From an uncultured Blautia sp. (GTDB taxonomy: Bacteria; Bacillota; Clostridia; Lachnospirales; Lachnospiraceae), in assembly GCA_934373235.1 (NCBI GenBank), contig CAKROW010000008.1, positions 1,039 to 65,038 of the forward strand: a stretch of DNA of 64,000 nucleotides, read 5' to 3'. Position 1 is the stretch's first letter. The number at the start of each line of letters is the position of its first letter. A program made the position numbers and the translations under genes. A model generated the notes under the pieces. That model had not been told where the DNA came from. It worked only from the letters and a program-made list of their open reading frames with translations, and did no database searches. This document shows, piece after piece, positions 5,471 to 39,380 of this stretch.

Positions 5471-6940
5471 TTATTCTCCGTCACCGAGGTCGCCTGCATC
5501 TTCGCCGCCTGCGTCCTCTGCTCCGGTATCTCCTGCATCTCCTGCTCCGCTGTCAGTATCTCCGCCGATATCTCCATCTGCGCCATTGTCAGAGTCTCCA
5601 GCAGCATCACCTGTAGTATCGGTATCTGCACCGCTGTAATCAACATCTGTACTGTCAGTGTTATCATTGTAATCTGCATCTCCGCCACCGGTATTATCGT
5701 TTCCGGTGTCATATCCGGGATCATAGTCATCTGACGTATCCTCTGAATAATCCGGTGTATAATCAGGCTCACTGTAAGAATAATCATCTGAGCTGTCATC
5801 AGCCTGCCAGATCACCGCATCATCTGTGGTGGTTTCCGTATCCGGTGTCTCGGTGATCACCGGTGCTGTTTCCTGTACTCCCGTACCATCCACGATCTGT
5901 GTGATATGGTTGCTTCGATCTGTGATAACTGCTGTAGGTGTATATCCTGTACTTCCGTAAAGGAAATCATGGATCTTCACAACATTGGTTTCCAGTGTCA
6001 TAGGCACGATAACGCTGCCCTTCACAGTAGCAAACTTATATTCCAGCGGGAAACCTGATGTGTCATCAATACTGTATCCGATCATGGCCGGGATCATCTG
6101 AAGGATCTCTGTCTTGGATACAGATGTTTTGATCATAGGGAAAACCTGATCCATAATATCAAAAATAGTACTCAGGCCTGCAGATTTGGCCTTGTCCACG
6201 ATCATCTGGATCACACGCCTCTGTCTCTCAGTACGTCCCATATCAAGACTTGCAGTGTAACGGATACGGCAGTAGGAAGTTGCCTGTACACCATTCAGGT
6301 GATAGGTTCCCACGATCGCCTCCTGATCTTCCGGTTTTGGCTCCGGCAGCTCTACCGGTGTATAACTTTTGCCGGTCTCCTCTGATGTCTCCACACAGTA
6401 GTTGTTCATATGAACGATCTCCGCATAGGAAAGAGGAATATCAAGTCCTCCAAGACAGTCAACCACTGTAACCAGTGCGTCAAAATCGATCGCAACATAA
6501 TCGGTGATGTTCAGGTCAAGGTTTGTGTTCAGCATGGAAATAGCCTGTGCGGGGCCTCCCAGTGCATAGGCTGCATTGGCCTTGGTATAGGTGTCGTCTC
6601 CCACATTAAGGAGGGTATCTCTGTATACAGAAACAAGTTTCACAGCCTTGGTATCATTATTGATGCTGGCAATGATAATGGTATCGCTGTTCTCAGTATT
6701 CAGCTTCTCATTCTTGTTTCTGTGGTCCAGACCAAACAGTGCGTACGTTGTATAACCTGTCATCTGCGGTGCCTGATCATTGGTTACAATATCCTGTTCT
6801 GAAAGATCCGTCTCCTGGATATCGATCTTATCCAGTCTGGAAGAAATCTGTCCATATACGTAAAGACCGCCGATAAACAGCAGCAAAACGACAATTTCCA
6901 GAATGAACAGGAATTTTTTCTTTTTTCGTGGTCTCGCCAT
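5471..6940 (-). CDS. LytR-CpsA-Psr (LCP) family glycopolymer-peptidoglycan ligase with long acidic C-terminal tail
   Basis: N-terminal basic segment plus TM helix. LCP core motifs (YALFGLDHRN..SDTIIIASIN, VSVYRDT, RIRY..DMGRTERQRRV). The last ~110 aa are D/G/T/Y/S low complexity. Confidence 0.85.
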   Translation of the reverse strand: MARPRKKKKFLFILEIVVLLLFIGGLYVYGQISSRLDKIDIQETDLSEQDIVTNDQAPQMTGYTTYALFGLDHRNKNEKLNTENSDTIIIASINNDTKAVKLVSVYRDTLLNVGDDTYTKANAAYALGGPAQAISMLNTNLDLNITDYVAIDFDALVTVVDCLGGLDIPLSYAEIVHMNNYCVETSEETGKSYTPVELPEPKPEDQEAIVGTYHLNGVQATSYCRIRYTASLDMGRTERQRRVIQMIVDKAKSAGLSTIFDIMDQVFPMIKTSVSKTEILQMIPAMIGYSIDDTSGFPLEYKFATVKGSVIVPMTLETNVVKIHDFLYGSTGYTPTAVITDRSNHITQIVDGTGVQETAPVITETPDTETTTDDAVIWQADDSSDDYSYSEPDYTPDYSEDTSDDYDPGYDTGNDNTGGGDADYNDNTDSTDVDYSGADTDTTGDAAGDSDNGADGDIGGDTDSGAGDAGDTGAEDAGGEDAGDLGDGE

Positions 6941-6954
6941 CTTTTTTCCCCTTT

Positions 6955-8373
6955 TTAATATGCGTTCTTGTTGATAAAGCCTTTAAATATAGTAAGGAAC
7001 ATGATCTTGATATCCAGTCCCACAGACCAGTTTTCGATGTAATAAAGATCACATTCAATACGTTTCCTGATAGAAGTATCTCCCCGGTAACCGTTTACCT
7101 GTGCCCATCCGGTAAGTCCCGGGCGCACCTGATGTTTTACCATGTACCTGGGTATCTCCTCACGGAATTTCTCCACAAAAAACGGTCTCTCAGGGCGAGG
7201 TCCCACCAGACTCATCTCTCCCTTGAGGATGTTAAAAAGCTGTGGAAGTTCGTCCAGACTGGTATGGCGCATAAATTTGCCGATACCTGTGACCCTCGGG
7301 TCATTCTTTACTGTCCACGCCTTTTTTTCTTCGGATTCCTTCTGTACTTCCATTGAGCGGAACTTGTACATCCAGAAGGTCTGGTTATGAAGTCCCACAC
7401 GTTCCTGCCTGTAGATCAGCGGCCCCGGCGAAGTAAGCTTGATAAGCCCGCACAGAACCAGCATCACCGGCGATGCAACAATGATCGCAGCAACAGAACC
7501 GGCAATATCCATGGCTCTCTTTACAAGTGCATTGAACGTATTACTCAGCGGTACATACCGGATGTTGATCACCGGCAGCCCCAGAATATCCTCTGTGTAA
7601 GGCTTTGTTGGAATGATATTGTTGTAGTCCGGAATAAACTTAGTGTGGACTCCTGACTTCTCACAAAGTGCTACGATCTCCTCAAGACGATAATATTCAC
7701 TCAGTCCCAGGGTAATGGCAATCTCATCCAGACGGCTGGAGGGCAGGATGATCATAAGATTGGCAATTCTTCCAATCACCTTGATCCCCTTGTAAGTGGT
7801 TCCCGCCGGAACATTGTCATCCAGAATTCCCCTGATCACATATCCCCACTGCGGATTCTGCAGAATCCTGTCAATGTATTCCTCTGCGGCACGGCTGTAT
7901 CCCACCAGAAGCACCTGTTTCTGGTTCATTCCCTTTTTGCGCATATCCCGGAGGATACAGAACACAAACATCCTGACTCCCCACTCAAGAACAATATTGA
8001 TCAGGCAGAAAGATACCAGGGTAAGACGGGAATAATCCAGTTCCTTAAAGTTATAAAGTGCAAACATGATGAACAGGAGCCCTAACACGTTTGCCTTCAC
8101 AATATTGGCAAGCACGAGACGGCGCCCCTGCATCCGCATCGGTGTATACAGATCAAAAGCCTGGTACAAAAGAAGATATCCGGGAATGATGAATATAAGC
8201 ATAAACATATATTCCTGGACCGTCTTGGACTGAACCGCCGAGTGTTCAAAAATACCCTGAAAACGGATCAGCCACGCCAGACCATATGATATTGCAACTA
8301 CAAATACATCAATCAGCATATGGAGACGACTGAAATTCTTCTGATTATCCTTAATCAATTTCCGCCACCTCAT
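6955..8373 (-). CDS. Polyprenyl-phosphate hexose-1-phosphate transferase (large PHPT, WcaJ/CpsE-like initiating enzyme)
   Basis: Several N-terminal TM helices and a C-terminal bacterial sugar transferase domain ([38 protein letters not shown]). Confidence 0.9.
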
Positions 8374-8443
8374 TTAAATTCATTGCCATTATCTTATAAT
8401 AGATGAATGGTAAAATCAACAAAAATTTATCTAAACGCTTCAT

Positions 8444-9400
8444 TCAGCCTGCAAAACGGCGGAACATATTCACCCACAGCTCGATCTGGAGCTTCACATA
8501 ATGATGGATATTGCGCAGGGAAAACTTCACTTTTCTGCCTTTTGCACTGATCTGAAAACCGTTCTTGATCCCTGCCACATACTCTCTTCCGTAGCCCTTG
8601 GATGCAAAAAATATTACCTTTGCACCGAATCCGGTGATCAGGAAAGGAAGGTTCAGGATGATCTGTATCCATGGCATGTTTTTATAGATCAGGTAAATAT
8701 TGTTTCTGGAAGAATACCGGATCTTGAAATGATTGTATCTGGATCCGCTGGTTCCGCTTCCCACATGATATACCACTGCTTTTGGCGCATACCAGTTCTC
8801 ATAGCCCTCAATCCTTGCCCTGTATCCGATATCCAGATCTTCCAGATATGCAAAATGCTCCTCGTCAAAATCTCCGATCTGCTCAATGACCTTCTTCCTG
8901 TAAATGGCAGCTCCCGCACAGGAGGAAAAGATCTTCTGCTCTTTGTTGTATCTGTCAATATCCTTTCCCTTGCCTCTGGCAAATGCCCATCCAAGGGCAC
9001 AGTAATAATTACCTGCATCATCCATCTTATCCCGGTCATGAAGCTGGATCATCTTTGCCTGGCAGGAAAAAGCTCTTTTGTGTCTCCTGATAGCTGCCAC
9101 CATCTCCTCCAGAAAATCCACTTCCACTTCCGTGTCATTATTCAGAAGGAGAACGTACCCGGATCTGGCCGCCCTGATTCCCTCATTGACCGCTCTGCTG
9201 AACCCGAAATTTTCAGGCAGCTCTATAATATGGACCCATGGATATTCTGCCGCCACAAAAGCACAGCTTCCGTCTGTAGATCCGTTATCTACCAGTATGA
9301 CCTCGTAATTTTTTATTGTCTGTCTCTCCAGGCTGGAAAGAACTCCCTCAAGATATGCCATTCCGTTAAAATTAGGAATAACTACTGATACTTCCTGCAT
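8444..9400 (-). CDS. Family 2 glycosyltransferase (WbbL-like)
   Basis: VVIPNFNG, VILVDNGSTDGS, LLNNDTEV motifs of a GT-A/GT2 fold. 318 aa. Confidence 0.85.
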   Translation of the reverse strand: MQEVSVVIPNFNGMAYLEGVLSSLERQTIKNYEVILVDNGSTDGSCAFVAAEYPWVHIIELPENFGFSRAVNEGIRAARSGYVLLLNNDTEVEVDFLEEMVAAIRRHKRAFSCQAKMIQLHDRDKMDDAGNYYCALGWAFARGKGKDIDRYNKEQKIFSSCAGAAIYRKKVIEQIGDFDEEHFAYLEDLDIGYRARIEGYENWYAPKAVVYHVGSGTSGSRYNHFKIRYSSRNNIYLIYKNMPWIQIILNLPFLITGFGAKVIFFASKGYGREYVAGIKNGFQISAKGRKVKFSLRNIHHYVKLQIELWVNMFRRFAG

Positions 9401-9406
9401 TGCTTT

Positions 9407-11269
9407 TTATCCCCTTTTCTTTCCCATTCCCGGAAGTGGTTTCAGGGAATAATTCCATTTGGTAAGTGAAAGATTCTTATTGTAGTACGGATCTCCGTTT
9501 TTGAGAATGTCGATCCAGTGGCAGCGCATGTACTCGATCTCCGACTGGAATCTGCGTATCTTTTCCTCGCTGTCCTCTGTACCTCTGGACTTGGATTCAT
9601 AATGGTAAAGCCTTACATAGGGATCATATACAATAAGATGCCCGTTTTGGCGTACCTTCAGACAGAGATCCACATCATTAAAAGCAACAGCCAGTTCCTC
9701 TGTAAAGCCACCCGCCTCCTGAAAAACAGCTTTCTTCATCATCATACAGGCCGCAGTCACACAGCTCATATCCTGAAGAAGAGATGCCTTGTGGAGATAG
9801 CCTGTACGGTCCCCGGGCATATTCACGAACATATTCCCCGCGATTCCGCCGATTCCCACCACACAGCCTGCATGCTGAATGGTATTGTCCGGATAAAGAA
9901 GCTTGGCTCCCACTGCTCCAACCTCCGGTCTCTGGCATACACCGAGAAGCTCCTGGATCCAGTCCGGTTCCAGAACCGTCACATCGTTATTCAGGAACAG
10001 AAGATAATCTCCTTTTGCGCTTCTCACACCGAAATTATTGATAGCTGAATAATTAAACTCCTTTTTCCAGCGGACAAGATGAATCTTTGGATTCACAAAG
10101 AGTTCCTTATAATATTGGAAGATCTCATCTGTGGTACTGTTATTCTCCACAATGATGATCTCATAATTGGTATATGTGGTTTTGGTAAAAACAGACTCCA
10201 GACATGCCTGAAGTGTTTTTTTCTCGTCCTTGTTTGGAATGATAATGGACACAAGAGGCTGACCCTGCACCGGATATTTCACCCTGTAAAAGCCGAAATC
10301 CCTGGTATGCTCCACAGTTCCCGGTGTACCTGTACGCAAAAGATTACCCTCAATGGCTCTCTTTCCTGCTTCAAAGGCATACATCTTGCTTGCCGGATTG
10401 TCTGCTGTGGAGGATTTGTGTGTCCTCCAGTGATAAAGGATCTCCGGGATATGGACGATCTCCCTGGCTTCCTCCACACAGCGGAAAATAAAATCATAAT
10501 CCTGTGCTCCGTCAAATTCCCTGCGAAAGCCTCCTGCTTTTTCCACAATGGATCTTCTCACAACAAGAAAATGGCAGATATAATTGTTGGACCTTAAAAG
10601 ATCCAAGCTGAAATCCGGCTTGAAATGAGGCTGGAAATGCTCGGAAAGGTCTGTTGTAACCTTATCCTCATCCGAATAGAACACATCGCCTTCCGGATGT
10701 TCCTCCATAGCTTTCACCATCTCATAAAGTGCGTCAGGAGCCAGAAGGTCATCATGGTCCAGAAGACCCACAAACTCTCCCTCTGCCATGGAAAAAGCCT
10801 CATTGGTATTCTCTGCAATCCCCAAGTTCTCCTCCAGATCCTTATGTCTGATGCGGCTGTCTTTCTTCTCATATTCTGCCAGCACAGCAGTCATTGTCTC
10901 ATCTTCCGGACTGCCGTTTGCCATACAGAGCTCCCAGTTACTGTAGGTCTGCGCCTCCAGGGAATCCAGAAGCTGTCTCAGGAAAAGCTCCGGTGTCTTA
11001 TAAGCCGGTACCACAATACTGATCAGCGGTTCATTCTTAAACTTATGCTTCCGTTCCTTCTCAAGCTCTTCCTCTGTTGGCCTATACGCTTCATACCAGG
11101 GTCCGTAGGGAACTTCCTCCGGCTCAAAGCGTTCATGGAGGCGTACCCAGAATTCCTTCGGGCCGTAATGCTTCAGATAACGCCAGCCCTTCCGGATAGT
11201 GTACGGAGACAATTTCCTGAAAAGTCTCGTCCACTCTATATTGCCTCCTGTTGAATTATTTTTGCTCAT
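9407..11269 (-). CDS. Tandem two-domain GT2 glycosyltransferase (paralog 1 of 3)
   Basis: Two GT-A modules: ISIVVPAYKT..DHDD and VSIIIPNKDE..FLNNDVTV. Conserved C-terminal GDPYYNKNLSL. RBS GGAGAA. Confidence 0.85.
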   Translation of the reverse strand: MSKNNSTGGNIEWTRLFRKLSPYTIRKGWRYLKHYGPKEFWVRLHERFEPEEVPYGPWYEAYRPTEEELEKERKHKFKNEPLISIVVPAYKTPELFLRQLLDSLEAQTYSNWELCMANGSPEDETMTAVLAEYEKKDSRIRHKDLEENLGIAENTNEAFSMAEGEFVGLLDHDDLLAPDALYEMVKAMEEHPEGDVFYSDEDKVTTDLSEHFQPHFKPDFSLDLLRSNNYICHFLVVRRSIVEKAGGFRREFDGAQDYDFIFRCVEEAREIVHIPEILYHWRTHKSSTADNPASKMYAFEAGKRAIEGNLLRTGTPGTVEHTRDFGFYRVKYPVQGQPLVSIIIPNKDEKKTLQACLESVFTKTTYTNYEIIIVENNSTTDEIFQYYKELFVNPKIHLVRWKKEFNYSAINNFGVRSAKGDYLLFLNNDVTVLEPDWIQELLGVCQRPEVGAVGAKLLYPDNTIQHAGCVVGIGGIAGNMFVNMPGDRTGYLHKASLLQDMSCVTAACMMMKKAVFQEAGGFTEELAVAFNDVDLCLKVRQNGHLIVYDPYVRLYHYESKSRGTEDSEEKIRRFQSEIEYMRCHWIDILKNGDPYYNKNLSLTKWNYSLKPLPGMGKKRG

Positions 11270-11324: not shown

Positions 11325-11354
11325 TTGCAAGGAACAGGGAAAATGTGTTATACT
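11325..11354 (+). promoter_or_regulatory. Candidate sigma-A promoter for the plus-strand PBP5-like gene
   Basis: TTGCAA(11325-11330), 18-nt spacer, TGtTATACT (TATACT = 11349-11354). RBS AGGAG lies 9 nt before the ATG at 11390. Confidence 0.55.
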
Positions 11355-11389
11355 GAGTGCATTCCTAAAGACTACAGGAGCATAAAATA

Positions 11390-13036
11390 ATGAAAAATAA
11401 AAAATTAAATACCATTCTTCTGGCACTGGGGCTGTCTGCCTCCCTGTTTTTCCAGGCACCGGTCTTTGCCACAGAGGACCCGGACTTTACAGATACCTCC
11501 TCTGAAGATGATCCTGCCTACGATGATACCGGCAGTGATTCTGATGATTCCTCAGATGATTCCTCAGATGATTCTTCTTATGACAGCGACGGAACCATTG
11601 AATATCTTTCAGATTCTGATGCTTCCACAGATGAGGATACTTCCGGAAGTGAGGATACTGAAAGCTACGACACCGGCGATACCGGTACCTCTGACACAGA
11701 TAATACGGACGGCACCGCAGATTCCAGTGATACAGCAGGCACGGACTCCGGTACTGCCACCACAGACACCACACAGACAGAAACAGTGTCCACAGAGGCT
11801 GCTTCCACAGAAGCTGCTGCCACTGACACCCCGGAGCAGACCGAAGCCTCCCAGGGAACAGATACCCAGGCAGCCACTGACAGCACCGCAGCTTCCCAGG
11901 GCATTACCACCAACTCCATCAGCGGATGGCCACAGGGTCCGGAGATCACCGCAGAATCAGCAGTGATCATGGAAGCTTCCACAGGCACTGTCCTCTATGG
12001 CAAAAATACAGACATTACTCAGCTTCCGGCTGGTACAGTCAAGATCATGACCTGTCTCCTGGCTCTTGAGAACAGTCAGCTTACAGATACCGTCACCATG
12101 ACAGAAACCGGTGTTTCCGGCGTAACAGACGGAGGGGCAAGCCTTTCCTCACAGCTTGGCGAGACCTTCACCATGGAACAGTGTCTTTACGCCATGATGG
12201 TAGGTTCTGCCAACGATGTGGCTCTCCAGGTAGCCGAGCAGATCAGCGGATCCGTGGACGCCTTTGTTGCTGCCATGAACCAGCGGGCCAGCCAGCTTGG
12301 CTGTACAGATACGGTATTTACCAATCCCACCGGACTTCCGGACGATAATCAGCATACCACTGCCCATGACCTTGCGCTGATCATGCAGGCAGCCATCCAA
12401 AATGACAGCTTCCGCACCATTGTCAGTGCCACAAGCTATACGATCCCGGCTACCAACATCTCCGCAGGTGTCCGTAACCTTACCAGTACCTTTACCATGA
12501 ACAATTCCGGAGCAGCCACTTTCTACGAAGGCTGCATCGGCGGCAAGGAGAGCACAGCTACCGCTTCCGGAACCACACTTGCCTGCGCTGCTGAGAAAAA
12601 CGGTGTCACACTCATCGCCATACTCCTTAAAGGTACTGCCGGACAGACTGACAGCGAAGCCGCTTCTCTTCTGGATTACGGATTTAACAACTTCCAGCTT
12701 CTGGACATTGGAAATGATGATTTCAATATCCTTTCCGGTGGAACTGTTATGGTTCCCGCCGGTGCCACAGCAGCAGATCTGACCACTCAGGATACTGAGG
12801 ACAATAACCAGATCAGCCGCCAGTATTTCTTCGGCGGAACACAGGTGGGTACTGCAGTAGTGGAGGATATCAAAGACGAATCCGGATCTGACACCCAGAT
12901 CAACGATACCAACATGGAAGAGGCGAAGGCTTACTCCCAGAACAGATCCAGAGTTCCCTATTACCTTATCGGAGGAGCTGGTATCCTTCTGCTCCTTCTT
13001 CTTATCTGGCGCCTTGTAAGGGTTCTTAAGAAATAG
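11390..13036 (+). CDS. PBP5/DacA-like (peptidase S11 fold) protein lacking the catalytic serine; probable pseudoenzyme
   Basis: Alignable by eye with the paralog at 25655-27013. SxxK reads GTVK (GGT at 12032-12034), SxN is retained (SAN), KTG reads KES (12545-12553). Signal peptide, ~140-aa D/S/T-rich N-terminal region, C-terminal TM anchor. Confidence 0.8.
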   Translation: MKNKKLNTILLALGLSASLFFQAPVFATEDPDFTDTSSEDDPAYDDTGSDSDDSSDDSSDDSSYDSDGTIEYLSDSDASTDEDTSGSEDTESYDTGDTGTSDTDNTDGTADSSDTAGTDSGTATTDTTQTETVSTEAASTEAAATDTPEQTEASQGTDTQAATDSTAASQGITTNSISGWPQGPEITAESAVIMEASTGTVLYGKNTDITQLPAGTVKIMTCLLALENSQLTDTVTMTETGVSGVTDGGASLSSQLGETFTMEQCLYAMMVGSANDVALQVAEQISGSVDAFVAAMNQRASQLGCTDTVFTNPTGLPDDNQHTTAHDLALIMQAAIQNDSFRTIVSATSYTIPATNISAGVRNLTSTFTMNNSGAATFYEGCIGGKESTATASGTTLACAAEKNGVTLIAILLKGTAGQTDSEAASLLDYGFNNFQLLDIGNDDFNILSGGTVMVPAGATAADLTTQDTEDNNQISRQYFFGGTQVGTAVVEDIKDESGSDTQINDTNMEEAKAYSQNRSRVPYYLIGGAGILLLLLLIWRLVRVLKK

Positions 13037-13130: not shown

Positions 13131-15641
13131 CTATACGTTTCTCTCAGTCAAAGCTTTTGGCCTTTTTTTTGTAAAAAAATATACAAGATATATAATATAC
13201 ACACACCAGAATACTCCGGAGCCTGCAACACCTGCCTTTAATCCAGGTGCCCGAAAAGTAAGTTCGATCTTATGATCTCCTGCCTTTACCTGACAGCTAC
13301 TGAATCCAAGATCACTTTTCAGGATCTCTGTCCGCTTTCCATCTACAGTAAGTTCCCAGCCATTTTCGTAAGGGATCATAAACTGAACATATCCATCCCT
13401 CTCTGCATGGACGGAGGCTTCCACTCTGGAATCCTTTTCGGGAACTGACACTGTTACTGTGGAATGATCCTCTCCCCCTTCTTTTTTCAGGTTCTGGAAT
13501 TCTTTCATGGAGCTTACATCTGCTCCATTCTCCACAGCTACCGCACCATCCAGCAGTTCCTGTCTGGTATCCTCACTGCAAAGAGCTCTGAAGCTTTTCT
13601 CTGAGATGGCAGTACTGTAAAATCCGGCTACAGATGCCTTCTCCACATTTTCGTAAAGATAGATTCCCGCAAACTGCTGAACCAGCTTGTATTTACTGCT
13701 GTCCAGATTTTTGTCCCTGGAAAGAAGGTATCTGACACCCAGGAAAGCGCCAAGCCAGTTGTCATCTGCCACTTTCCAGTATGCCAGCTTGTTCTGGTCC
13801 CCACAATAAAGTTCCGGATAACAGGTATCCACAAATTCCTTGAGATTGCCGTTCATCACTGAATTGTAGGTACTGATACCCCGGTAGTTCTGTCCTGCGC
13901 TGTCCATGGCAAAGGTAGCTGACATATAGTCCTTTTCCACCCTGTAAAATTCCCGGTCATATGATTCCAGCCAGATAAGGGCATCCTGAAGATCCTGCCT
14001 GTAAAGCTCGCGGAAATAACTCTGGGGCTGGTTAAATTCTGCCCTTGCGCTGGTTTCCCCGTCTTTGGACTCTCTTTGCTTCAGATAGGTATCTGTGGCA
14101 GTTTCAAACTGTTCCACCGGAGTATCTGCCTTTCTCAGATAGATCCTGTCCTGGAAGGTTACACCACCCTCGGAAACCACATTGATGATAAATGCAGCAG
14201 TAAGGATATAAACCACAGTCCTCTGCATAACACTCCAGCCGGAACCGCTGTTTTTCTTTTGGGGAATCCGGTTCCACAGGATCAGCACTGCTGCCGTTAC
14301 AGTTCCTGTCACTGCTGCCACAGCCACATTTGCTCTGTATTCACTGAAAAGGCTCCAGCTATATCCGTTAAAACATACCCAGATAAGTACCGCCTCTGTC
14401 ACAGCCACTGCCGGGATATTGGCTTTTTCCCCTGCAAGAAGTCTGTCCCAGGTCCAGGCGGCAGCCATCAGCATAAACGGAAGAAGCACAAAAGTATAAC
14501 GGTTGGTACTTTCCGTAAAGGAATTATAGGCAATACCGCCAACCGGCAGAAGCACCAGGATCAGCATAAACAACGCACTGCCATATACTGCTTTTTTTAT
14601 CCGCTTGTTCTCATTTTTGCGGAACAGGATCAGGAACTGCACTGTAAGGAAAACTGCCAGCACAGAGCAGAACACCACAGGATCCTCATAATAATTAAGG
14701 TAACCGTGGAATTTTTCGTCTCCCAGTTCCTGAAGGTTCTGGAAGTTACTGGAAAACAGCCTGGTAATAAGACTTGCATAATATTCTTTACCGTAGGGGG
14801 TAAAACAGTTCCTGATAATGGCAGATATTCCCGCATCTTTCCCAAGCCTTGAAGAAACACCGGTGAGGACCAGGGCCGTAGGAAGAAAGATCCCAAGGCT
14901 CATTCCGATTCCCAGGATCATCTGAGCGCATCCCCCAAGGAATTTCTTTGCCCCGTCTTTTAAGGACAGGCCTTCCTTTGCACACAGACGGAAGATCATA
15001 TAAAATCCCACAGTTGCAAGGATCATATAGGAAAAATACACGCTTGTAAGCCCGCAGAAAAACGCAGCAACAGGAAAAAGCACACCGCTTTTCCTGTCTT
15101 TTATGTAATGCTCACAGAAGATCAGCATCAGCGGGAGGTAGATCGTCACTACCCCAAACTGATAATGCTGTCCCCAGATCATAAGATAGCCGCTCATTCC
15201 ATAGGCAAAAGCAGCAAGGAATTTTGCAGATCTGCTGAATCCATACTGGCTCAGGAACCAGTAAAACACAAGTCCTGCAAGAAGGATCTCAAGGATCATC
15301 ACCCACACAATAAAAAGAAGCATATGGGCGGTTCCCTTCACAAATCCCAGAAGATAAAGGATCCAGATGAACGGGTGGAACATATAATAGTTAAAAATAT
15401 TGATTCCCAGTCCATTGGTAAAATCCCAGTCTGTAAAGGTTCCGTTTTTCAGATGGTTTACCACATCTGCATACTGCATGGTATACTGCTGCCAGGTGTC
15501 TCCGCCAACGTCATTGAACATCAGCACCCGGTCACCAAAAACATAATCTCTGAATATAAAAAGGCAGGATGCCAGCAGTGCCACAAAAAGCACTGCTATC
15601 ACCAGCCCCTCCCTTTTTATCTTTTTTTTATCTTTTATCAT
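13131..15641 (-). CDS. yfhO: YfhO-family GT-C membrane glycosyltransferase
   Basis: 836 aa with many TM helices. N-terminal pattern FGDRVLMFNDVGGDTWQQY...GLGINIFNYY is typical of YfhO. Large extracytoplasmic C-terminal domain. Confidence 0.85.
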   Translation of the reverse strand: MIKDKKKIKREGLVIAVLFVALLASCLFIFRDYVFGDRVLMFNDVGGDTWQQYTMQYADVVNHLKNGTFTDWDFTNGLGINIFNYYMFHPFIWILYLLGFVKGTAHMLLFIVWVMILEILLAGLVFYWFLSQYGFSRSAKFLAAFAYGMSGYLMIWGQHYQFGVVTIYLPLMLIFCEHYIKDRKSGVLFPVAAFFCGLTSVYFSYMILATVGFYMIFRLCAKEGLSLKDGAKKFLGGCAQMILGIGMSLGIFLPTALVLTGVSSRLGKDAGISAIIRNCFTPYGKEYYASLITRLFSSNFQNLQELGDEKFHGYLNYYEDPVVFCSVLAVFLTVQFLILFRKNENKRIKKAVYGSALFMLILVLLPVGGIAYNSFTESTNRYTFVLLPFMLMAAAWTWDRLLAGEKANIPAVAVTEAVLIWVCFNGYSWSLFSEYRANVAVAAVTGTVTAAVLILWNRIPQKKNSGSGWSVMQRTVVYILTAAFIINVVSEGGVTFQDRIYLRKADTPVEQFETATDTYLKQRESKDGETSARAEFNQPQSYFRELYRQDLQDALIWLESYDREFYRVEKDYMSATFAMDSAGQNYRGISTYNSVMNGNLKEFVDTCYPELYCGDQNKLAYWKVADDNWLGAFLGVRYLLSRDKNLDSSKYKLVQQFAGIYLYENVEKASVAGFYSTAISEKSFRALCSEDTRQELLDGAVAVENGADVSSMKEFQNLKKEGGEDHSTVTVSVPEKDSRVEASVHAERDGYVQFMIPYENGWELTVDGKRTEILKSDLGFSSCQVKAGDHKIELTFRAPGLKAGVAGSGVFWCVYIIYLVYFFTKKRPKALTERNV

Positions 15642-25654: not shown

Positions 25655-27013
25655 TTATTTTTCGTAATTCTTTTGTTTTATCCTCAAAGCCGCTAAAAGG
25701 CCGATGAGCAGTAATATCATGGCAGCCATGACTACCAGAAGGATAAGCCTTGTCTTCGGGATGCCCTTCACTGTATCTTTCCGGGTATCTGCAGCATCGC
25801 TTGTCTCTGTCCCTGCTTTTCTTGCATGGCTGCTGTTGTCCGAAATGGTTCTGTCTGTGAGATTGCTGCCGTTTTCATCTGTATCTGTGGTTTCTGTTGT
25901 TTCTGCGGTTCCTGTTGTTTCTGTGGTTCCTGTATTTTCCTCAGTCCCGGGCACAGGCGTCTCTGTCACTGTGATCATTCCTGATCCAACCAGATGATCA
26001 CCAAGGTAGTAATCCTCCATCTGAGGATTATTTTCCTCCGGCTTCGTGGTAAGGGTGGATATATCCATTCCGTTGGGAACTGTGACGCTTCCTCCGTTTA
26101 CCTCGGTTCTGGTAAAATTCGTATATACATATTCACTTAACGCCTTCGTGTCCATACATGAGTAGGACAGGTTCTGGGCACGCATGGTAACAATGATATA
26201 CGTAAGCCCGTTCTGCTCCACCTCTGTCACAAGGGTCTGACCTGCTGCATTGGTGTAACCGGTCTTTCCCCCTTTGCATGGCTCGTAGTAGAACTCACTC
26301 TCCGGTGCCATCATTGCATGATGATTGGAAAGATTTCTCACCTGGCTGTTCATGTTGGTAGGCTGGATATCATGCTGTCTGGTGTGCACAACGGTACTGA
26401 AGGTATCATTCTTAAGTCCTGCCTGGTAGATCAGTGCCATATCCCTGGCTGAAGAATAATTATTCTCATCCGGAAGTCCGCTGGAATTGGCAAAATGCGT
26501 GTTCTCACAGCCAAGTTCTGCTGCCTTCTGGTTCATCATATCTATAAATGCCTGTTCCGTGCCGCCAATATGCTCTGCGATCTGTGCTGCCACGTCATTG
26601 GCAGAAGAAAGGATCAGTGCATACAGGCAGTCCTCCATACTGATAATCTCCCCCACCTGTGTGCCGATATTGCTGGAATCCGCATTGACATTTCGCACAC
26701 CTGTAGCAGTAAAAGTCACCTGTTCATCCATAGCAGAGTGTTCTGCTGCCACAAGTAAAGTCATAAGCTTGGTGATGCTGGCAGGATAACGCTGAAGGTC
26801 CGCACCCTTGTCATAGAGCACCCGGCCTGTTTCATTATCCATGACGACGGCAGTGTCCGAGGTGATCGCCGGTGCTGCCGGCCATCCTGTAATCTGGTCT
26901 GTAGTTACCGTACCGGCGGTGTTCAGATCCACTGCCCCATAGGCAGACACTGCACCTGCCCCGATAAAAACACACCCAAGGATTACTGCCAGGATCTTTT
27001 TATATTTTTTCAT
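25655..27013 (-). CDS. D-alanyl-D-alanine carboxypeptidase (PBP5/DacA-type, peptidase S11), catalytic motifs intact
   Basis: SITK (PASITKLMT), SAN and KTG (GGKTGYT) are all present. Signal peptide, T/E-rich linker, C-terminal TM anchor. ATG 27013 has a GGAG RBS; the ORF extends to TTG 27028. Confidence 0.85.
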   Translation of the reverse strand: MKKYKKILAVILGCVFIGAGAVSAYGAVDLNTAGTVTTDQITGWPAAPAITSDTAVVMDNETGRVLYDKGADLQRYPASITKLMTLLVAAEHSAMDEQVTFTATGVRNVNADSSNIGTQVGEIISMEDCLYALILSSANDVAAQIAEHIGGTEQAFIDMMNQKAAELGCENTHFANSSGLPDENNYSSARDMALIYQAGLKNDTFSTVVHTRQHDIQPTNMNSQVRNLSNHHAMMAPESEFYYEPCKGGKTGYTNAAGQTLVTEVEQNGLTYIIVTMRAQNLSYSCMDTKALSEYVYTNFTRTEVNGGSVTVPNGMDISTLTTKPEENNPQMEDYYLGDHLVGSGMITVTETPVPGTEENTGTTETTGTAETTETTDTDENGSNLTDRTISDNSSHARKAGTETSDAADTRKDTVKGIPKTRLILLVVMAAMILLLIGLLAALRIKQKNYEK

Positions 27014-27028
27014 AATATAAGTCTCCAA

Positions 27029-28159
27029 TCAGAATCCGTCAAAAGATGCAACTGCGTCAACCACTCTCCTGGCATCCTCCATGTCCAGGTTATAGAACAT
27101 GGGAAGCCTTAAGAGTCTCTCACTTTCTCTGGTGGTATACACATCCTCCCCTGCAAATCTGCCAAATTTAAGGCCTGCAGGCGCAGAGTGGAGCGGCACA
27201 TAATGGAACACACTGCACACACCCTTCTCCCGTAAATATTTCAGAAGCCGGGTCCTTACCTGGATATCATGTACTTTAATATAATACATATGTGCATTAT
27301 GCTCACATTCTGCCGGCACAAAAGGCTGCTGGATCTTGCCTTCATCTGCAAGGAATTTCAGGTTCCGGTTATAAAAATCATAAATTTCCATACGCTTGGC
27401 ACTGATCTTTTTGTGCTGTTCAAGCTGTGCATAAAGATATGCCGCATTCAGCTCACTGGGCAGATAGGATGAACCGTAATCCATCCAGCGGTATTTATCC
27501 ACCTGTCCACGGAAAAACTTGCTTCTGTCTGTTCCCTTTTCCCGCAGGATCTCTGCTTTTTCCTGGTAGGCATCATCATCATAGACAATGGCGCCTCCCT
27601 CTCCCATAGTATAATTCTTAGTCTCATGGAAGCTGTAACAGCCAAAATCTCCGATGGTTCCCAGTGCTTTTCCTTTATAGTATGCATCCACTCCCTGGGC
27701 AGCATCCTCCACTACCTTAAGGTTATGTTTCCTGGCGATCGCCATAATGGTATCCATCTCACAGGCAACCCCTGCATAGTGGACCGGTACGATCACTCTG
27801 GTCTTATCTGTGATGGCCTGTTCGATCAGCTTCTCATCAATATTCATGGTATCCGGGCGGATATCCACAAACACGATCTTTGCACCTCTGAGCACAAAAG
27901 CATCCGCAGTGGACACAAATGTGTAGGATGGCATGATCACCTCATCTCCAGGCTGTACATCCGAAAGATAGGCTGCCATCTCCAGTGCATGTGTGCAGGA
28001 GGTTGTAAGCATCACGTGTCCCACATGAAAACGGTCCTGCATCCATCCGGAACATTTTTTTGTGTACTCACCGTCTCCGCAGAGCATCCCGCGGTTGACC
28101 GCATCCTGTATATATTCAAATTCCCTGCCTGTAAACGCAGGTCTGTTAAAATCTATCAT
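27029..28159 (-). CDS. DegT/WecE-class PLP-dependent dTDP-4-keto-6-deoxyhexose 4-aminotransferase
   Basis: The N-terminus MIDFNRPAFTGREFEYIQDAVNRGMLCGDGEYTKKC follows the E. coli WecE pattern as I recall it. VEDAAQG, SFHETKN (PLP lysine), GEGGA. Confidence 0.85.
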   Translation of the reverse strand: MIDFNRPAFTGREFEYIQDAVNRGMLCGDGEYTKKCSGWMQDRFHVGHVMLTTSCTHALEMAAYLSDVQPGDEVIMPSYTFVSTADAFVLRGAKIVFVDIRPDTMNIDEKLIEQAITDKTRVIVPVHYAGVACEMDTIMAIARKHNLKVVEDAAQGVDAYYKGKALGTIGDFGCYSFHETKNYTMGEGGAIVYDDDAYQEKAEILREKGTDRSKFFRGQVDKYRWMDYGSSYLPSELNAAYLYAQLEQHKKISAKRMEIYDFYNRNLKFLADEGKIQQPFVPAECEHNAHMYYIKVHDIQVRTRLLKYLREKGVCSVFHYVPLHSAPAGLKFGRFAGEDVYTTRESERLLRLPMFYNLDMEDARRVVDAVASFDGF

Positions 28160-28171
28160 CTCTTCCTCTTT

Positions 28172-29134
28172 TCAAAGTGCTTCCCATTCTTTTATGCAGG
28201 CAGCTATATATTCCATTTCTTCCCTGCCATACCTCTGGTCGCAGGGTACTGGCAGGATATTCTCTGACCACTGATATTCCAGGGTATCTGCCTTAAGGTC
28301 CCGCAGCACATTCTTCCAGTTGGTTGGTACAAAGATCTTCTTTCCTGCCAGCCATCTGCGAAGTTCGATTCCATTCCTGTGATAGTAAGGGTAAGCAAAA
28401 GGTCCCTCCGGTATCTCACCGTTAAATGGTGAACCGGAAGGCAGAAGCTCTGCAAGCAGTCTGTAATTGGCCTCTCTTTTTCGCTTTATGCCCTCATAGT
28501 CAATGGTCTTAAGCAGGTTCTCCGTAAGACGTGACATACGCCGTACTCCGCTGCTGCCAAATCCTGCCGCAGTATCCAGCATACGCTGATAATAGGTACC
28601 TGCGTCGTATTCATATCTTCCCAGCACATGGGCCATATGCTCCATGGAGTAATCCTCCGGAAGATCCATATCCGGCTGCGCATCTGTGGCCAGATATGCA
28701 CCGTCCCCCACACCGAAAAACTTCCTGCATGAGTAAATGGTATCGATTCCCTCCACCGGCCTGTCATAAAATGCCTGTGTATTGTCTACAATAATATTTC
28801 CAAATTTTTTCTTATAATAACGTATCTTATCTTCTGTGAGGCAGCCATAGTAATTCACCAGATACACGTAAGTTCCTTCTTCCGGTGCTCCCTGTGGCAG
28901 CACAGGTTCCAGCTCCTCGCTGAGATAATAAAAGATCATCTCTGTATCATTCTCCCTGCACACCTGAAACACAGATTCACAGAGAAAATAAGGCATATAT
29001 ATCTTACGGATCTGCCTTGTCCTCAAAAGGAGAAGAAAGGCCGTCCTGCCCAGATTCACCCTGTACAGATCCTCATAATATTCTCTGCCGGATGCTTCCT
29101 CCAGCTCAAGATATCCTCCGATTTCTTTCTTCAA
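28172..29134 (-). CDS. Uncharacterised protein, possibly a divergent DegT/aminotransferase-fold enzyme
   Basis: The ORF runs to GTG 29164. TTG at 29134 is preceded by AGGAGG with a 9-nt spacer. Weak DegT-like pattern: LGRTAFLLLL, IYMPYFLCESV, VDNTQAF, YSCRKFFGVGDGAYL. Confidence 0.45.
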   Translation of the reverse strand: MKKEIGGYLELEEASGREYYEDLYRVNLGRTAFLLLLRTRQIRKIYMPYFLCESVFQVCRENDTEMIFYYLSEELEPVLPQGAPEEGTYVYLVNYYGCLTEDKIRYYKKKFGNIIVDNTQAFYDRPVEGIDTIYSCRKFFGVGDGAYLATDAQPDMDLPEDYSMEHMAHVLGRYEYDAGTYYQRMLDTAAGFGSSGVRRMSRLTENLLKTIDYEGIKRKREANYRLLAELLPSGSPFNGEIPEGPFAYPYYHRNGIELRRWLAGKKIFVPTNWKNVLRDLKADTLEYQWSENILPVPCDQRYGREEMEYIAACIKEWEAL

Positions 29135-29266
29135 ATCTGATATCCTCCTGTCAGCTATTGACACTTGTTTTTTATCTTATCATTTTCAATGTCGGTTGTA
29201 AAGAGTTCACGAATAGTATATACTTGCATCGTATGAAAGTAAATTATCACGAAAGCGAGTTCAAAA

Positions 29267-30238
29267 ATGTTAGTTTCTATTGTGATCCCCTGCTATTACT
29301 CAGAAAAGTCCATACGCAAGGTAGTGGAAATGGTAATGGCGGAGTTTGACAAAAATGAGGGCTATGAATGTGAATTTGTCCTTGTAAATGATGGCTCCAC
29401 AGACAATACCTGGCCTGAGATCCAAAGGCTTGGTCAGGAATACCCCTGTGTCCACGGCATCAATCTTATGCATAATTTTGGCCAGCATAATGCCCTGATG
29501 GCATCCATGCACTATGCAAAAGGCGACTATGTCCTGGGAATGGATGACGATATGCAGACCCACCCTTCCCAGATCTTCAGACTGATACATAAGATCGAGG
29601 AAGGCTATGATCTGGTATACGGTGTCTACCCTCACAAAAAAAATTCCTGGCTTAAGAATTTTTCCAGCAAGATCAACGAAGTCACTTCCCGGATTATGCT
29701 GAACCGCCCCAGGGACATTGTATCCAGCAATTTCTGGATCATCACCAGCGCAGTACAGAAGGAAGTTGCCAAGTATACCAGCTTCAATCCCTATATTGAC
29801 GGAATCTTTTACCGTGTAACCCATAATATCGGAAATGTTCCGGTAGAACACTATCGCCGGGAATTCGGCACCTCCGGTTACACCTTACGTAAACTTGTCA
29901 ATCTGTGGCTTTGTTACTGGAACTTTTCGGTGATTCCTCTGCGGCTTTCCTTTTTCCTGGGAATCTTTTCCGGATTTGCAGGAGTTGTCATTGCACTGCT
30001 TGTGATCATCAACAAGCTGCTGCACCCGGATGTTACCATGGGATGGTCCTCCACCTTATGTGTTATTGTGATCTTTTTTGGCATCGTGCTTACAGTTCTT
30101 GGTATTGTAGGGGAATATCTGGGCAAGATCATTCTGATCCTTAACAACACGCCCCAGTATATTGTCCGTGAAACAGTCAATACACCAGATACCATAGAGG
30201 AAAAGATCAGCAAACTTGTGAGGGAGAAAGTCAATTGA
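29267..30238 (+). CDS. Polyprenyl-phosphate glycosyltransferase (GT2, GtrB/CsbB/ArnC architecture)
   Basis: N-terminal GT-A (VSIVIPCYY, VLVNDGSTD, MDDDMQ) followed by two C-terminal TM helices with the GIVGEYLGKI motif. Confidence 0.85.
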   Translation: MLVSIVIPCYYSEKSIRKVVEMVMAEFDKNEGYECEFVLVNDGSTDNTWPEIQRLGQEYPCVHGINLMHNFGQHNALMASMHYAKGDYVLGMDDDMQTHPSQIFRLIHKIEEGYDLVYGVYPHKKNSWLKNFSSKINEVTSRIMLNRPRDIVSSNFWIITSAVQKEVAKYTSFNPYIDGIFYRVTHNIGNVPVEHYRREFGTSGYTLRKLVNLWLCYWNFSVIPLRLSFFLGIFSGFAGVVIALLVIINKLLHPDVTMGWSSTLCVIVIFFGIVLTVLGIVGEYLGKIILILNNTPQYIVRETVNTPDTIEEKISKLVREKVN

Positions 30239-31473
30239 AAAAGATCATGATTCTGGGAGCCGGGATCTACCAGGTTCCCCTTATAAAAGCAGCCCAGGAT
30301 ATGGGACTTTATACCATCGTTGCCAGCATCCCCGGAGAGTATCCCGGGTTTGCCCTGGCTGATCAGGTCTGTACCATAAATACCACAGATCAGCAGGAAA
30401 TCCTTAAAGTATGCCTCCGTGAAAACATCCAGGCCATCTGCACCACCGGTACGGATGTTGCCGTTTCCACCATCGGATATGTGTGCCAGCACATGGGACT
30501 TCCGGGAATTTCCCTTTCTGCTGCCAGGAATGTCACAGACAAAGCACAGATGAAGGCAGCTTTTGAGCGTGGACATGTATCTGCCTCCCGTTTCCGTCAG
30601 GTAAATACCCTTGAGAAGGCCCGAAAAGCTGCTTCTGAGATCGGCTATCCTGTAGTCGTCAAACGTGTGGACAGCTCCGGAAGCCGCGGAATTACAGTTG
30701 TAAAGGATCCGGAATATCTGGCTGCAGCTTTTGATTCTGCACTCTCCGGTTCACGCAGGGATTATGTTCTGGTTGAGGAGAAACTTCATGGCATGGAAGT
30801 CGGTGCAGATGGCCTGATCCAGAACGGAGAAATTGTTTTCTTTGTTCCCCACGGAAAGTCCGTATATCATACAGGAACCATTGATGTTCCTGCAGGACAC
30901 AGCCTTCCATGGCAGGGTTCCCCGGTTCTTTCTGAGGAAATCCGCCGCCAGCTTAATGCCGCAGTTCAGGCACTTGGACTTGACAACTGTCCTTTTAACG
31001 CAGATCTTTTTGTAGATCCTGATACTGCCAAAGTGTGGATCATTGAGATTGGGGGCCGTACAGGCGCTACCTGCATCCCTGAGCTGATCTCCATGTATTA
31101 TGGTTTTGATTATTACGAAAAAATACTGAAAAACGCTCTTGGTGAGCCACTGTCTCTTCCCTCTGTTCCCCACGGAAGCCCCTGCCGTGCAATGCTTCTT
31201 ATGAGTCCCTTTGAAGGCAGGATCACATCTGTGGATCAGGATATCCTTCATGAGCTTACAGAACAGGGGATTACCGTCACACTGGACTATCCTGTGGGTC
31301 ATCCGGTTGAAAAAATGGAAAACGGCACCTGCCGCTTCGGCCATGTGATATTTCCGGTGCATCAGCCTGAGGAAACTGACCGGATCCTTCGTAAACTCTA
31401 CAGCTCGATCCACATTGACGAAGAGCCCCTTTCCTGGGAACATAATATAAAGCCCCATATCGGGGACGCCTGA
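30235..31473 (+). CDS. ATP-grasp family ligase
   Basis: MKKIMILGAGIYQVPLI Rossmann-like pre-ATP-grasp domain, DKAQMK..F, YPVVVKRVDSSGSRGI, LVEEKLHGMEV, IIEIGGR. The TTG start overlaps the upstream stop (TTGA 30235-30238). Confidence 0.8.
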   Translation: MKKIMILGAGIYQVPLIKAAQDMGLYTIVASIPGEYPGFALADQVCTINTTDQQEILKVCLRENIQAICTTGTDVAVSTIGYVCQHMGLPGISLSAARNVTDKAQMKAAFERGHVSASRFRQVNTLEKARKAASEIGYPVVVKRVDSSGSRGITVVKDPEYLAAAFDSALSGSRRDYVLVEEKLHGMEVGADGLIQNGEIVFFVPHGKSVYHTGTIDVPAGHSLPWQGSPVLSEEIRRQLNAAVQALGLDNCPFNADLFVDPDTAKVWIIEIGGRTGATCIPELISMYYGFDYYEKILKNALGEPLSLPSVPHGSPCRAMLLMSPFEGRITSVDQDILHELTEQGITVTLDYPVGHPVEKMENGTCRFGHVIFPVHQPEETDRILRKLYSSIHIDEEPLSWEHNIKPHIGDA

Positions 31474-38509: not shown

Positions 38510-39380
38510 GCTTCACTCTCCCTTTCAGCAGATGCCGAAGCTTACTGTTATCAACTACTTTCTTGTTCTGAGCATTGATCAGGATCTCCCGGAGCTGCTT
38601 GGATGTCAGTCCCCTGGAAAGCGCCCCATCCTGCGCTACAGATACCTGTCCGGTCTCCTCTGAAACAATGATCGTCAGGGAATCTGTGGCCTCACTGATT
38701 CCCACTCCTGCTCTGTGTCTGGTTCCAAGCTGCTTGCTCAGTTCCATATTGTCTGAAAGAGGAAGATAACAGGTTGCTGCCACGATACGGTTTCCTCTCA
38801 CGATGACCGCACCATCATGCAGCGGTGTATTGTGTTCAAAAATATTAATAAGAAGCTGGCTTGATAAAATTCCATCCACATTGATACCGGTCCGCACATA
38901 TTCATCCAGACGGATTTCCTTCTCAATGACGATCAGGGCTCCGGTCTTCACCTCACCCATATCAAAACATGCCTTCACCAGCTCATTGATAGTCTTGTCA
39001 TTAAACCGCTCCTGCACTTCCTTGCCCGAATCAAAAGGAATAATAGTAGAAACGATCTTCTTCTGTCCCAGTTGTTCCAGAGCCTTGCGAAGCTCGGGCT
39101 GGAAAATTACGATCACGCCGATCACCAGCACATTGGCAAGATTGCGGACAATCCACAGGATCGTATTCATTTTGAAAATATATGCGACCAGGATAAAAGC
39201 AAGGACTACCAGGATGCCTTTCAGAAGAGTATATGCACGCGTAAACTTGATCCACGCCATAAACTGATACACAAAAAAGGAAATCAGTGCGATCTCGATC
39301 ACATCGATCACACCCAGTCCCGGCAGCGTAAGCTTGCCCAGATATCCTGTGAGATTTGTCAGTATGTTCTCCATAAGCAC
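38493..39380 (-). CDS. cdaA: Diadenylate cyclase CdaA (c-di-AMP synthase)
   Basis: Three N-terminal TM helices and DAC-domain motifs GALIVIE, TPLHDGAVIV, GTRHRAG, SEETG. Confidence 0.92.
   Translation of the reverse strand: MLMENILTNLTGYLGKLTLPGLGVIDVIEIALISFFVYQFMAWIKFTRAYTLLKGILVVLAFILVAYIFKMNTILWIVRNLANVLVIGVIVIFQPELRKALEQLGQKKIVSTIIPFDSGKEVQERFNDKTINELVKACFDMGEVKTGALIVIEKEIRLDEYVRTGINVDGILSSQLLINIFEHNTPLHDGAVIVRGNRIVAATCYLPLSDNMELSKQLGTRHRAGVGISEATDSLTIIVSEETGQVSVAQDGALSRGLTSKQLREILINAQNKKVVDNSKLRHLLKGRVKHEEKF

Follow-up and report, generated by a model that had tools for sequence, protein, structure and literature searches.

We analyzed a 64,000-nucleotide (nt) stretch of DNA from an uncultured Blautia species (contig CAKROW010000008.1, positions 1,039 to 65,038; hereafter the window), which carries an ABC-transporter-dependent cell-wall polysaccharide locus, and found that one of its genes encodes a PBP5-type protein, here termed S11L, with degenerate catalytic motifs. 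We consider it probable that S11L is a conserved, exported and membrane-anchored pseudo-DD-peptidase that serves as a non-catalytic accessory in the cell-wall polysaccharide pathway. The loss of these motifs of the penicillin-binding proteins (PBPs) is seen in every alignment that we made, that of KTG is shared by a whole family of orthologs, and the gene is under purifying selection.

S11L is clearly homologous to the Peptidase_S11 family (PF00768), with a score of 137.8 bits against a cutoff of 27.6, and it falls into no named NCBIfam subfamily, all matches there lying far under their cutoffs. Its BLASTP alignment with a second S11 protein of the window, encoded on the minus strand, has 40% identity over 323 amino acids and pairs PAGTVKIMT, SAND and GGKESTA of S11L with PASITKLMT, SAND and GGKTGYT of the paralog, respectively. 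Matches of S11L in the PDB found with phmmer are DacB, PBP5 and K15 (E-values down to 6.6e-33), and in the alignment with Bacillus subtilis DacB (PDB 3MFD) G215 lies in the nucleophile column, ungapped, with SxN also aligned. A custom hidden Markov model (HMM) built from 119 canonical relatives gave the same register, pairing ryPASiTKimT with qlPAGTVKIMT, kSANeva with GSANDVA and ciGGKTGyT with CIGGKESTA, ungapped and at the top posterior probability at the three motifs. With the Pfam profile, which is likewise ungapped at this column, four independent alignments thus place Gly215 in the Ser column. In motif 1, Val217 additionally replaces the Thr of S-x-T-K, with the Lys retained.

These findings uphold an earlier note on this DNA, made by reading the sequence, which had described two S11 proteins that align across the catalytic domain, one of them with Gly (GGT, 12032-12034) for the nucleophile Ser, SAN retained, KES for KTG and no alternative SxxK. 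The Gly codon was confirmed, its sequence context being ccg gct ggt aca gtc aag. As to an alternative SxxK, a regular-expression search over all 548 amino acids of S11L found neither S..K nor [KH][TS]G. S11L therefore lacks the S-x-x-K and K-T/S-G signatures of Peptidase S11, keeps S-x-N, and, with a catalytic residue missing at the homologous position, is a non-peptidase homolog in the MEROPS sense. As judged from these alignments, it is unable to form the Ser-acyl intermediate by which PBPs are defined, and so is no classical acyl-enzyme DD-peptidase.

Apart from the motif loss itself, no observation suits the idea that the gene is a functionless, decaying pseudogene or an artefact of sequencing or assembly. 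The identical protein is present on at least 23 contigs, the four displayed being from different human-gut metagenome samples and having identical neighboring genes, and Gly/Ala orthologs occur in many species, which rules out an error of sequencing or assembly. Variants of 93-96% identity also have PAGTVK and KES, and differ mostly by indels and substitutions in an N-terminal spacer; within the species, the S11-like domain is almost invariant and the spacer is variable. Given also an intact open reading frame (ORF) in 79 of 80 species loci, conserved synteny and a ratio of nonsynonymous to synonymous substitution rates (dN/dS) far below 1, we attach next to no credence to this explanation; pseudogene decay in particular is ruled out by the dN/dS values and the intact ORFs.

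To define the family, one genome per GTDB species was scanned and the best 80 of 162 relatives were kept. The 79 species loci with a full-length S11L ORF, the window and two metagenome loci make up the 82 ortholog sequences used here. The species loci are mostly of Blautia (B. luti, fusiformis, aquisgranensis, wexlerae, faecis, glucerasea, schinkii, caecimuris, acetigignens and others). Motif 1 is S/G/A-x-V-K and motif 3 is [K/R]-E-[G/S] in all 82 sequences. In the nucleophile column, 47 of them have Ser, 17 Gly and 18 Ala, giving 35 serine-less sequences; B. wexlerae (L074), for example, is a Ser form with SAVK and KEG. Related genomes thus carry Gly at this column, a point that the earlier note had suggested checking, and Ala besides. 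That note had treated the loss of motifs as a trait of this one paralog; the loss is real, but it is not a private lesion, since the whole family shares [KR]E[GS] and xVK.

Database searches delimit the same family. The 120 closest database proteins (63-99% identity) all lack KTG, have K/R-E-S/G instead and show G, S or A in the nucleophile column; the few that are named bear the label Blautia or Clostridia. In a search of 1.8 billion cluster representatives, the boundary of the S11L clade lies at ~49% identity. The 17 closest representatives mostly have S/G/A-x-V/A-K and K/R-[E/Q/A/G]-G, with a few fragments or other residues at these positions, whereas beyond the boundary nearly all representatives have S-[ITL]-T-K and K-T-G. 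Fixed differences between the clade and canonical relatives were found at five positions, V217 (T in canonical relatives), Q321 (H), H322 (Y), E387 (T) and S393 (A); the canonical comparison set was chosen for S-x-T-K and GK[TS]G, so its 100% conservation at those columns is by construction, and the unfiltered list of cluster representatives shows the same motif pattern. A further 29 positions are invariant in the family and specific to the clade, and 11 of these fall within the C-terminal domain or beyond it.

Several side observations concern the makeup of this family. Some Blautia-type S11L contigs (L010, L016, L019, L079, L084) are labeled Prevotella sp., Eggerthellaceae, Holdemanella biformis or Ruminococcus bicirculans in the records of metagenome-assembled genomes, and these are probably binning contaminants and not horizontal transfers. 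Five metagenome orthologs (P0016, P0019, P0020, P0023, P0037) have identical C-terminal halves and differing N-terminal halves of the PGSTVK, PASAVK and PGATVK types, which reflects either recombination between Blautia species within the S11L gene or chimeric assembly of short contigs. Because such metagenome orthologs may be recombinant or chimeric, state counts were based on GTDB genome loci. Among distant S11 homologs, four also lack the nucleophile (P0159, P0164, P0183 and P0233: PVGLTK with SYND and KTT; MSGLTK with RDA; PSGLTK with KSG; and PTGITK with all motifs degenerate); therefore, dead PBP5 homologs with a Ser-to-Gly change arose in separate lineages outside the S11L family.

The replacement of the serine has occurred repeatedly. 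On a neighbor-joining tree rooted with canonical relatives, the ancestral nucleophile is Ser, and Fitch parsimony requires 9 changes; with the motif columns removed, 100 bootstrap neighbor-joining trees give 7-10 changes and a Ser root in 100 of 100. All Ser codons are AGT or AGC and the Gly codons GGT, GGC or GGA are one transition off, whereas the Ala codons (GCN) are two steps from AGY and one from GGN, which makes the path Ser to Gly to Ala likely. Position 215 is occupied only by S, G or A, though a single step from AGT could also give Arg, Cys, Thr, Ile or Asn, and on this pattern it tolerates small residues only. The changes from KTG to [K/R]E[G/S] and from SxTK to SxVK are, on the evidence of the aligned sequences, ancestral to the family.

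We estimated dN/dS by the Nei-Gojobori method for pairs matched by dS bin. For Gly/Ala pairs, dN/dS was 0.109, 0.070 and 0.083 at dS of 0.03-0.3, 0.3-0.8 and 0.8-1.2, compared with 0.045, 0.040 and 0.045 for Ser-Ser pairs, and within the Gly clade at dS >1 it was 0.04-0.09; these pairwise values are phylogenetically non-independent and are descriptive only. They indicate a mild relaxation in the serine-less forms, which nonetheless are under strong purifying selection, and all 35 serine-less sequences, drawn from several species, are intact ORFs. The impression recorded in the earlier note that the gene is not decayed thus agrees with the dN/dS of ~0.07-0.11 among serine-less orthologs, with genus-wide synteny and with the near-invariant domain within the species.

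Conservation of the pocket does not depend on the serine. P213, V217, K218, T221, S273, A274, N275, Q321, H322, G384, G385 and E387 are conserved in 35 of 35 serine-less forms, whose mean pairwise identity is 68%, and the same positions are equally conserved in the 47 Ser forms. Motif 3 behaves differently: Lys386 has given way to Arg in 23 of the 35 serine-less forms, as against 7 of 47 Ser forms, and Ser388 is confined to Gly forms. Because R386 and S388 are concentrated in the serine-less forms, motif 3 has eroded further where the serine is gone. We conclude from this sequence record that the nucleophile serine is dispensable in the S11L family.

The family could also be in a mixed state, in which the Ser orthologs are active with a modified specificity and the Gly/Ala forms, that of the window among them, represent recent loss-of-function alleles that persist solely through a secondary role in structure or partner binding. 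The serine-less lineages are old, however, as the divergence and low dN/dS of the Gly clade indicate, and the 7-10 changes on the tree suggest that the serine is nearly neutral family-wide. Moreover, K218, S273 and N275 should drift after loss of the serine if catalysis were the selected function, and no drift is seen. The mixed state does account for the ~1.5-2-fold higher dN/dS of Gly/Ala pairs at matched dS and for the concentration of the R386 and S388 erosion in the serine-less forms, but on balance we regard it as unlikely.

A structural model of S11L, computed with AlphaFold2 on a 26-sequence alignment, was used at the level of the fold only (pLDDT 69, pTM 0.67). The top Foldseek matches were 3MFD, 5FSR, 3IT9 and 1NZO; the two-domain proteins represented are DacB, PBP6, PBP6B and PBP5, with 325-370 aligned columns, TM-scores of 0.60-0.66 and a probability of 1.00 to 3MFD and PBP6. 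The modeled fold of S11L is therefore that of the two-domain PBP5/PBP6/DacB proteins.

Retention of the pocket and the small-residue rule at position 215 suggest that the cleft is still in use. The Thr of KTG helps to hold the carboxylate of the substrate or β-lactam in structures of PBP5 and β-lactamases. Because the invariant Glu387 stands at the position of this Thr, where a carboxylate should disfavor binding of another, the carboxylate of D-Ala-D-Ala is an unlikely ligand of S11L. The earlier note had proposed a non-catalytic binder of D-Ala-D-Ala or the stem peptide; its non-catalytic half agrees with the lost acyl-enzyme chemistry, but Glu387 speaks against the ligand. We tentatively offer, as a rather improbable extension, that the PBP5 cleft has been repurposed for a ligand other than D-Ala-D-Ala, which would make S11L an undescribed class of PBP-fold, non-catalytic factor that assembles or attaches the cell-wall polysaccharides of Gram-positive bacteria. 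Candidate ligands would then be the glycopolymer of the locus, its lipid- or peptidoglycan-linked form, or an amino-acid decoration, and S11L could be a dead partner of the intact S11 paralog.

The same retention raises the question of whether S11L is still an enzyme, with chemistry independent of Ser215 or with a new substrate. The retained Lys might activate water directly, together with the serine of SxN and the newly acquired Glu, or another nucleophile might act on an ester or amide decoration of the locus glycopolymer and not on D-Ala-D-Ala. V217, K218, S273, N275, Q321, H322 and E387 are invariant in Ser and Gly/Ala forms alike; four active-site-proximal positions changed together and were then fixed, which has the look of remodeling and not of erosion; and a DegT aminotransferase and an ATP-grasp enzyme resembling amino-acid ligases, both encoded in the window, could make unusual amide-linked decorations. 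Nevertheless, no hydrolase with a PBP fold is known to us to be active in the absence of the SxxK serine, and none turned up in the literature searched. There is also no conserved Ser, Thr or Cys beside position 215 (A, G or S at 214; T or A at 216), and in the wider clade, at ~50% identity, Q, A or G can take the place of the Glu, which is therefore no universal catalytic addition. The free exchange of K386 for Arg, commoner in serine-less forms, likewise points to relaxed catalytic constraint, and we judge continued enzymatic activity to be quite unlikely.

Gene order connects S11L with polysaccharide synthesis. Its gene lies at the junction of a conserved core and a variable part of the locus. 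The core genes, for an LCP ligase, a Bac_transf priming transferase, a GT2 glycosyltransferase and a double-GT2 protein, lie directly upstream of and divergent from the S11L ortholog in 69-73 of 80 species loci. In contrast, the downstream side is variable, with a YfhO homolog within reach in 23 of 80 species. Three further forms are placed in the same way, one with Gly (72% identity), one with Ser (65%) and one with K-G-G (~52%). S11L is thus in conserved linkage with the LCP ligase, the priming transferase, GT2s and Wzm/Wzt. When the S/G/A state was compared by eye with the presence of YfhO downstream, no association was apparent.

The second S11 protein of the window, which the earlier note had read correctly as having intact SITK, SAN and KTG, was verified by BLASTP and Pfam, and SITK, SAND and KTG are kept in 120 of 120 of its homologs. 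It carries a signal peptide and a C-terminal transmembrane (TM) segment and is syntenic (DegT, S11, RfbC, Wzm, Wzt) in a Ser-form and a Gly-form species (L089, L090). A canonical PBP inside a wall-polysaccharide operon is in itself uncommon. The two proteins share the locus, the signal peptide and TM segment, 40% identity in the catalytic and C-terminal domains and the motif GG-V-VP-G...LTT. They differ in that S11L lacks KTG in 82 of 82 and Ser in 35 of 82 sequences whereas the paralog is always canonical, and in that the paralog is co-directional within the operon whereas S11L is a separate, divergently transcribed unit. The two lie ~12 kb apart in the same locus, and no intact paralog was found within 6 kb of S11L in the loci of other species.

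On one contig with similar neighboring genes (L092), the genes for CdaA, YbbR and HPr are followed downstream by those for a GT2, a 320-amino-acid protein and an ATP-grasp enzyme, directly after which two S11 genes stand in tandem. One copy of the pair is a canonical relative (46% identity). From this arrangement, an origin of S11L by local duplication is plausible.

Based on these data, we propose that a DD-carboxypeptidase gene linked to the cell-wall polysaccharide locus was duplicated and gave rise to the S11L family. An early remodeling of the cleft would have changed S-x-T-K to S-x-V-K and K-T-G to K-x-G, the latter becoming fixed as [K/R]-E-[G/S] in Blautia. The nucleophile serine would then have been dispensable and repeatedly replaced by Gly (AGT to GGT) and subsequently by Ala (GGT to GCT). 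On the outer face of the membrane, S11L would act as a non-catalytic binding or scaffolding subunit for glycopolymer assembly and attachment, its remodeled cleft and/or C-terminal domain holding either another enzyme as partner or a ligand in the cell wall. The partner could be the intact S11 paralog, the LCP ligase or an extracytoplasmic glycosyltransferase, and S11L itself would not cleave D-Ala-D-Ala.

It should be noted that several observations weigh against a non-catalytic accessory role. The serine is kept in 47 of 82 ortholog sequences, which could retain some activity, and the strict retention of K218, S273, N275 and [K/R]386-E387 exceeds what a pure scaffold would be expected to need and may mean residual chemistry. 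The structural model is of moderate quality, with low confidence at model residues 181-225 (immediately before and including the KES strand), and the dN/dS comparison carries the dependence among pairs given above. Lastly, we infer the link of S11L to the polysaccharide pathway or to attachment from gene order only.

S11L has the two-domain fold, the membrane anchor, SxN and the Lys of SxxK in common with the class C low-molecular-weight S11 PBPs (Escherichia coli PBP5, PBP6 and PBP6B; B. subtilis DacB, or PBP5*), and differs from them by Gly215 for Ser, Val for Thr and K-E-S for K-T-G. The anchor of PBP5 is an amphipathic helix, whereas that of S11L appears to be a true hydrophobic TM helix. 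Retargeting of the fold to a wall glycopolymer is exemplified by FmtA of Staphylococcus aureus, a teichoic-acid D-Ala esterase with a PBP fold and no canonical KTG, which is S12/AmpH-like and uses the SxxK serine as nucleophile. S11L, in contrast, belongs to the S11 branch, and the copy in the window has no serine; lacking SxxK and having an S11-type SxN as motif 2 in place of the S12-type YxN, it is not FmtA-like.

In concept, S11L resembles the LytM factors EnvC, NlpD and DipM, in which a degenerate peptidoglycan-hydrolase domain is kept for a non-catalytic role; the inactive LytM domain of DipM binds and controls several autolysins (PMC10336132). These factors have a LytM/M23 metallopeptidase fold and S11L a PBP/β-lactamase fold, so the likeness is one of analogy only. 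CspA and CspC of Clostridioides difficile are conserved, functional pseudoproteases beside an active paralog, CspB (PMC7200643), but they have a subtilisin fold, act in spore germinant signaling and have no relation to cell-wall polysaccharides. The literature searched contained no characterized serine-less S11/PBP5 family and no S11L gene in Lachnospiraceae polysaccharide loci, and the paper on the Ruminococcus gnavus glucorhamnan cluster has no peptidase or PBP gene in its text. Dead peptidase homologs and dead LytM regulators are an established category, whereas for a conserved serine-less S11 family we found no description.

The sources that name S11L orthologs call them "D-alanyl-D-alanine carboxypeptidase family protein", a misleading label for a protein that cannot be acylated. 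The natural Ser and Gly/Ala forms, together with a paralog that is always intact, provide a natural experiment on a PBP fold without its chemistry. If our proposal is true, the PBP family would join the cell-wall enzymes that have regulatory pseudoenzyme relatives, as amidases have in the LytM factors, and S11L would be a penicillin-insensitive PBP homolog that activity-based probes miss. Blautia is among the most abundant genera of the human gut, and its cell-wall polysaccharides are exposed to the host.

The features of the S11L gene and of its surroundings are listed in Table 1.

Table 1. Features of the S11L gene and adjoining parts of the polysaccharide locus (positions are those of the window; aa, amino acids).
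Feature	Position	Strand	Basis
Coding sequence of the degenerate PBP5-type protein S11L, 548 aa + stop	11390..13036	+	ORF call, Pfam, BLASTP, phmmer, HMM
Promoter-like site, TTGCAA, 18-nt spacer, TG-extended TATACT	11325..11354	+	Consensus scan only
AGGAG ribosome-binding site, 9 nt 5' of ATG 11390	11376..11380	+	Sequence reading
Signal-peptide-like N-terminus MKNKKLNTILLALGLSASLFFQAPVFA, residues 1-27, without lipobox Cys	11390..11470	+	By eye
Asp/Ser/Thr-rich low-complexity spacer, residues 28-170, 143 aa	11471..11899	+	Sequence
Peptidase_S11 (PBP5-type) penicillin-binding-fold domain, residues 182-414	11933..12631	+	Pfam E=5e-40; Foldseek
Degenerate motif 1, P213-A-G215-T-V217-K218	12026..12043	+	Alignments
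Retained motif 2, S273-A-N275 (SxN)	12206..12214	+	Alignments; 82/82 ortholog sequences
Degenerate motif 3, K386-E387-S388, instead of K-T-G	12545..12553	+	Coordinates counted from start codon; alignments
C-terminal beta-rich domain and juxtamembrane helix, residues 415-523	12632..12958	+	Predicted strands; Foldseek
C-terminal transmembrane anchor YYLIGGAGILLLLLLIWRLV, then basic tail RVLKK	12959..13018	+	Sequence; modeled helix
Conserved core divergent from S11L: LCP ligase 5471-6940, Bac_transf 6955-8373, GT2 8444-9400, double-GT2 9407-11269	5471..11269	-	
YfhO-family membrane glycosyltransferase, convergent with S11L, start of variable part	13131..15641	-	Profile matches
Intact S11 paralog (SITK/SAN/KTG), between DegT aminotransferase and RfbC, in the polysaccharide operon	25655..27013	-	Pfam, BLASTP, synteny

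The promoter-like site lies within the 120-bp divergent intergenic region that S11L has in common with the double-GT2 gene; the consensus scan returned 4 such sites against a chance expectation of 2.2. The promoter, ribosome-binding site, signal peptide, TM anchor and acidic spacer of ~140 amino acids named in the earlier note are all present on our reading of the sequence, the first as a candidate from that scan. The signal-peptide-like N-terminal pattern and the TM anchor are kept across orthologs, and clade-specific invariant residues of the C-terminal domain include D444, F445, S449, G450, V453, D468 and R477.

The locus extends on both sides of S11L. On the minus strand before it, from low to high coordinates, are genes for HtrA, a GT2, the LCP ligase, the priming transferase, a GT2 and the double-GT2 protein. 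After it, again on the minus strand, follow YfhO, two double-GT2s, a methyltransferase-containing protein, Wzt, Wzm, RfbC, the intact S11 paralog and DegT; beyond DegT, the plus strand encodes a GT2 and an ATP-grasp ligase, which are followed on the minus strand by GH25, a YkuD LD-transpeptidase and CdaR/CdaA. In the B. luti-like Gly-form species (L005, L090), a single ORF of 1879 amino acids unites the methyltransferase and glycosyltransferase genes of the variable region, and a DUF2142-like membrane protein, not YfhO, adjoins S11L.

Next to the paralog, the segment 27029-31473 encodes the DegT aminotransferase (27029-28159, minus strand), a 330-amino-acid protein without a Pfam match (28172-29164, minus strand), a GT2 (29267-30238, plus strand) and the ATP-grasp enzyme (30235-31473, plus strand), which matches D-Ala-D-Ala ligase C-terminal and L-amino-acid ligase domains. 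This set hints at a glycopolymer with an amino sugar bearing an amino acid, which could bear on recognition by the S11 proteins. Farther on, the minus-strand segment 32292-39380, which flanks the locus, encodes a GH25 muramidase with cell-wall-binding repeats (32292-33821), a 963-amino-acid protein that ends in a YkuD LD-transpeptidase domain (33993-36884), and the cyclic di-AMP pair CdaR/YbbR (37205-38509) and CdaA (38493-39380). The presence of an LD-transpeptidase near a DD-carboxypeptidase suggests a supply of tetrapeptides for 3-3 cross-linking.

The spacer of S11L contains 33 Asp, 32 Thr and 26 Ser among its 143 amino acids, and short tandem repeats of 12-18 nt lie inside it; its length varies within the species. 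Because an acidic spacer of ~140 amino acids is limited to a few lineages and most orthologs have none, it is not core to S11L function. The convergent YfhO-family neighbor, a GT-C protein, has weak matches to the protein-O-glycosylation enzymes PgfM1 and PgfM2 of Streptococcus mutans, and the spacer might be a glycosylated stalk.

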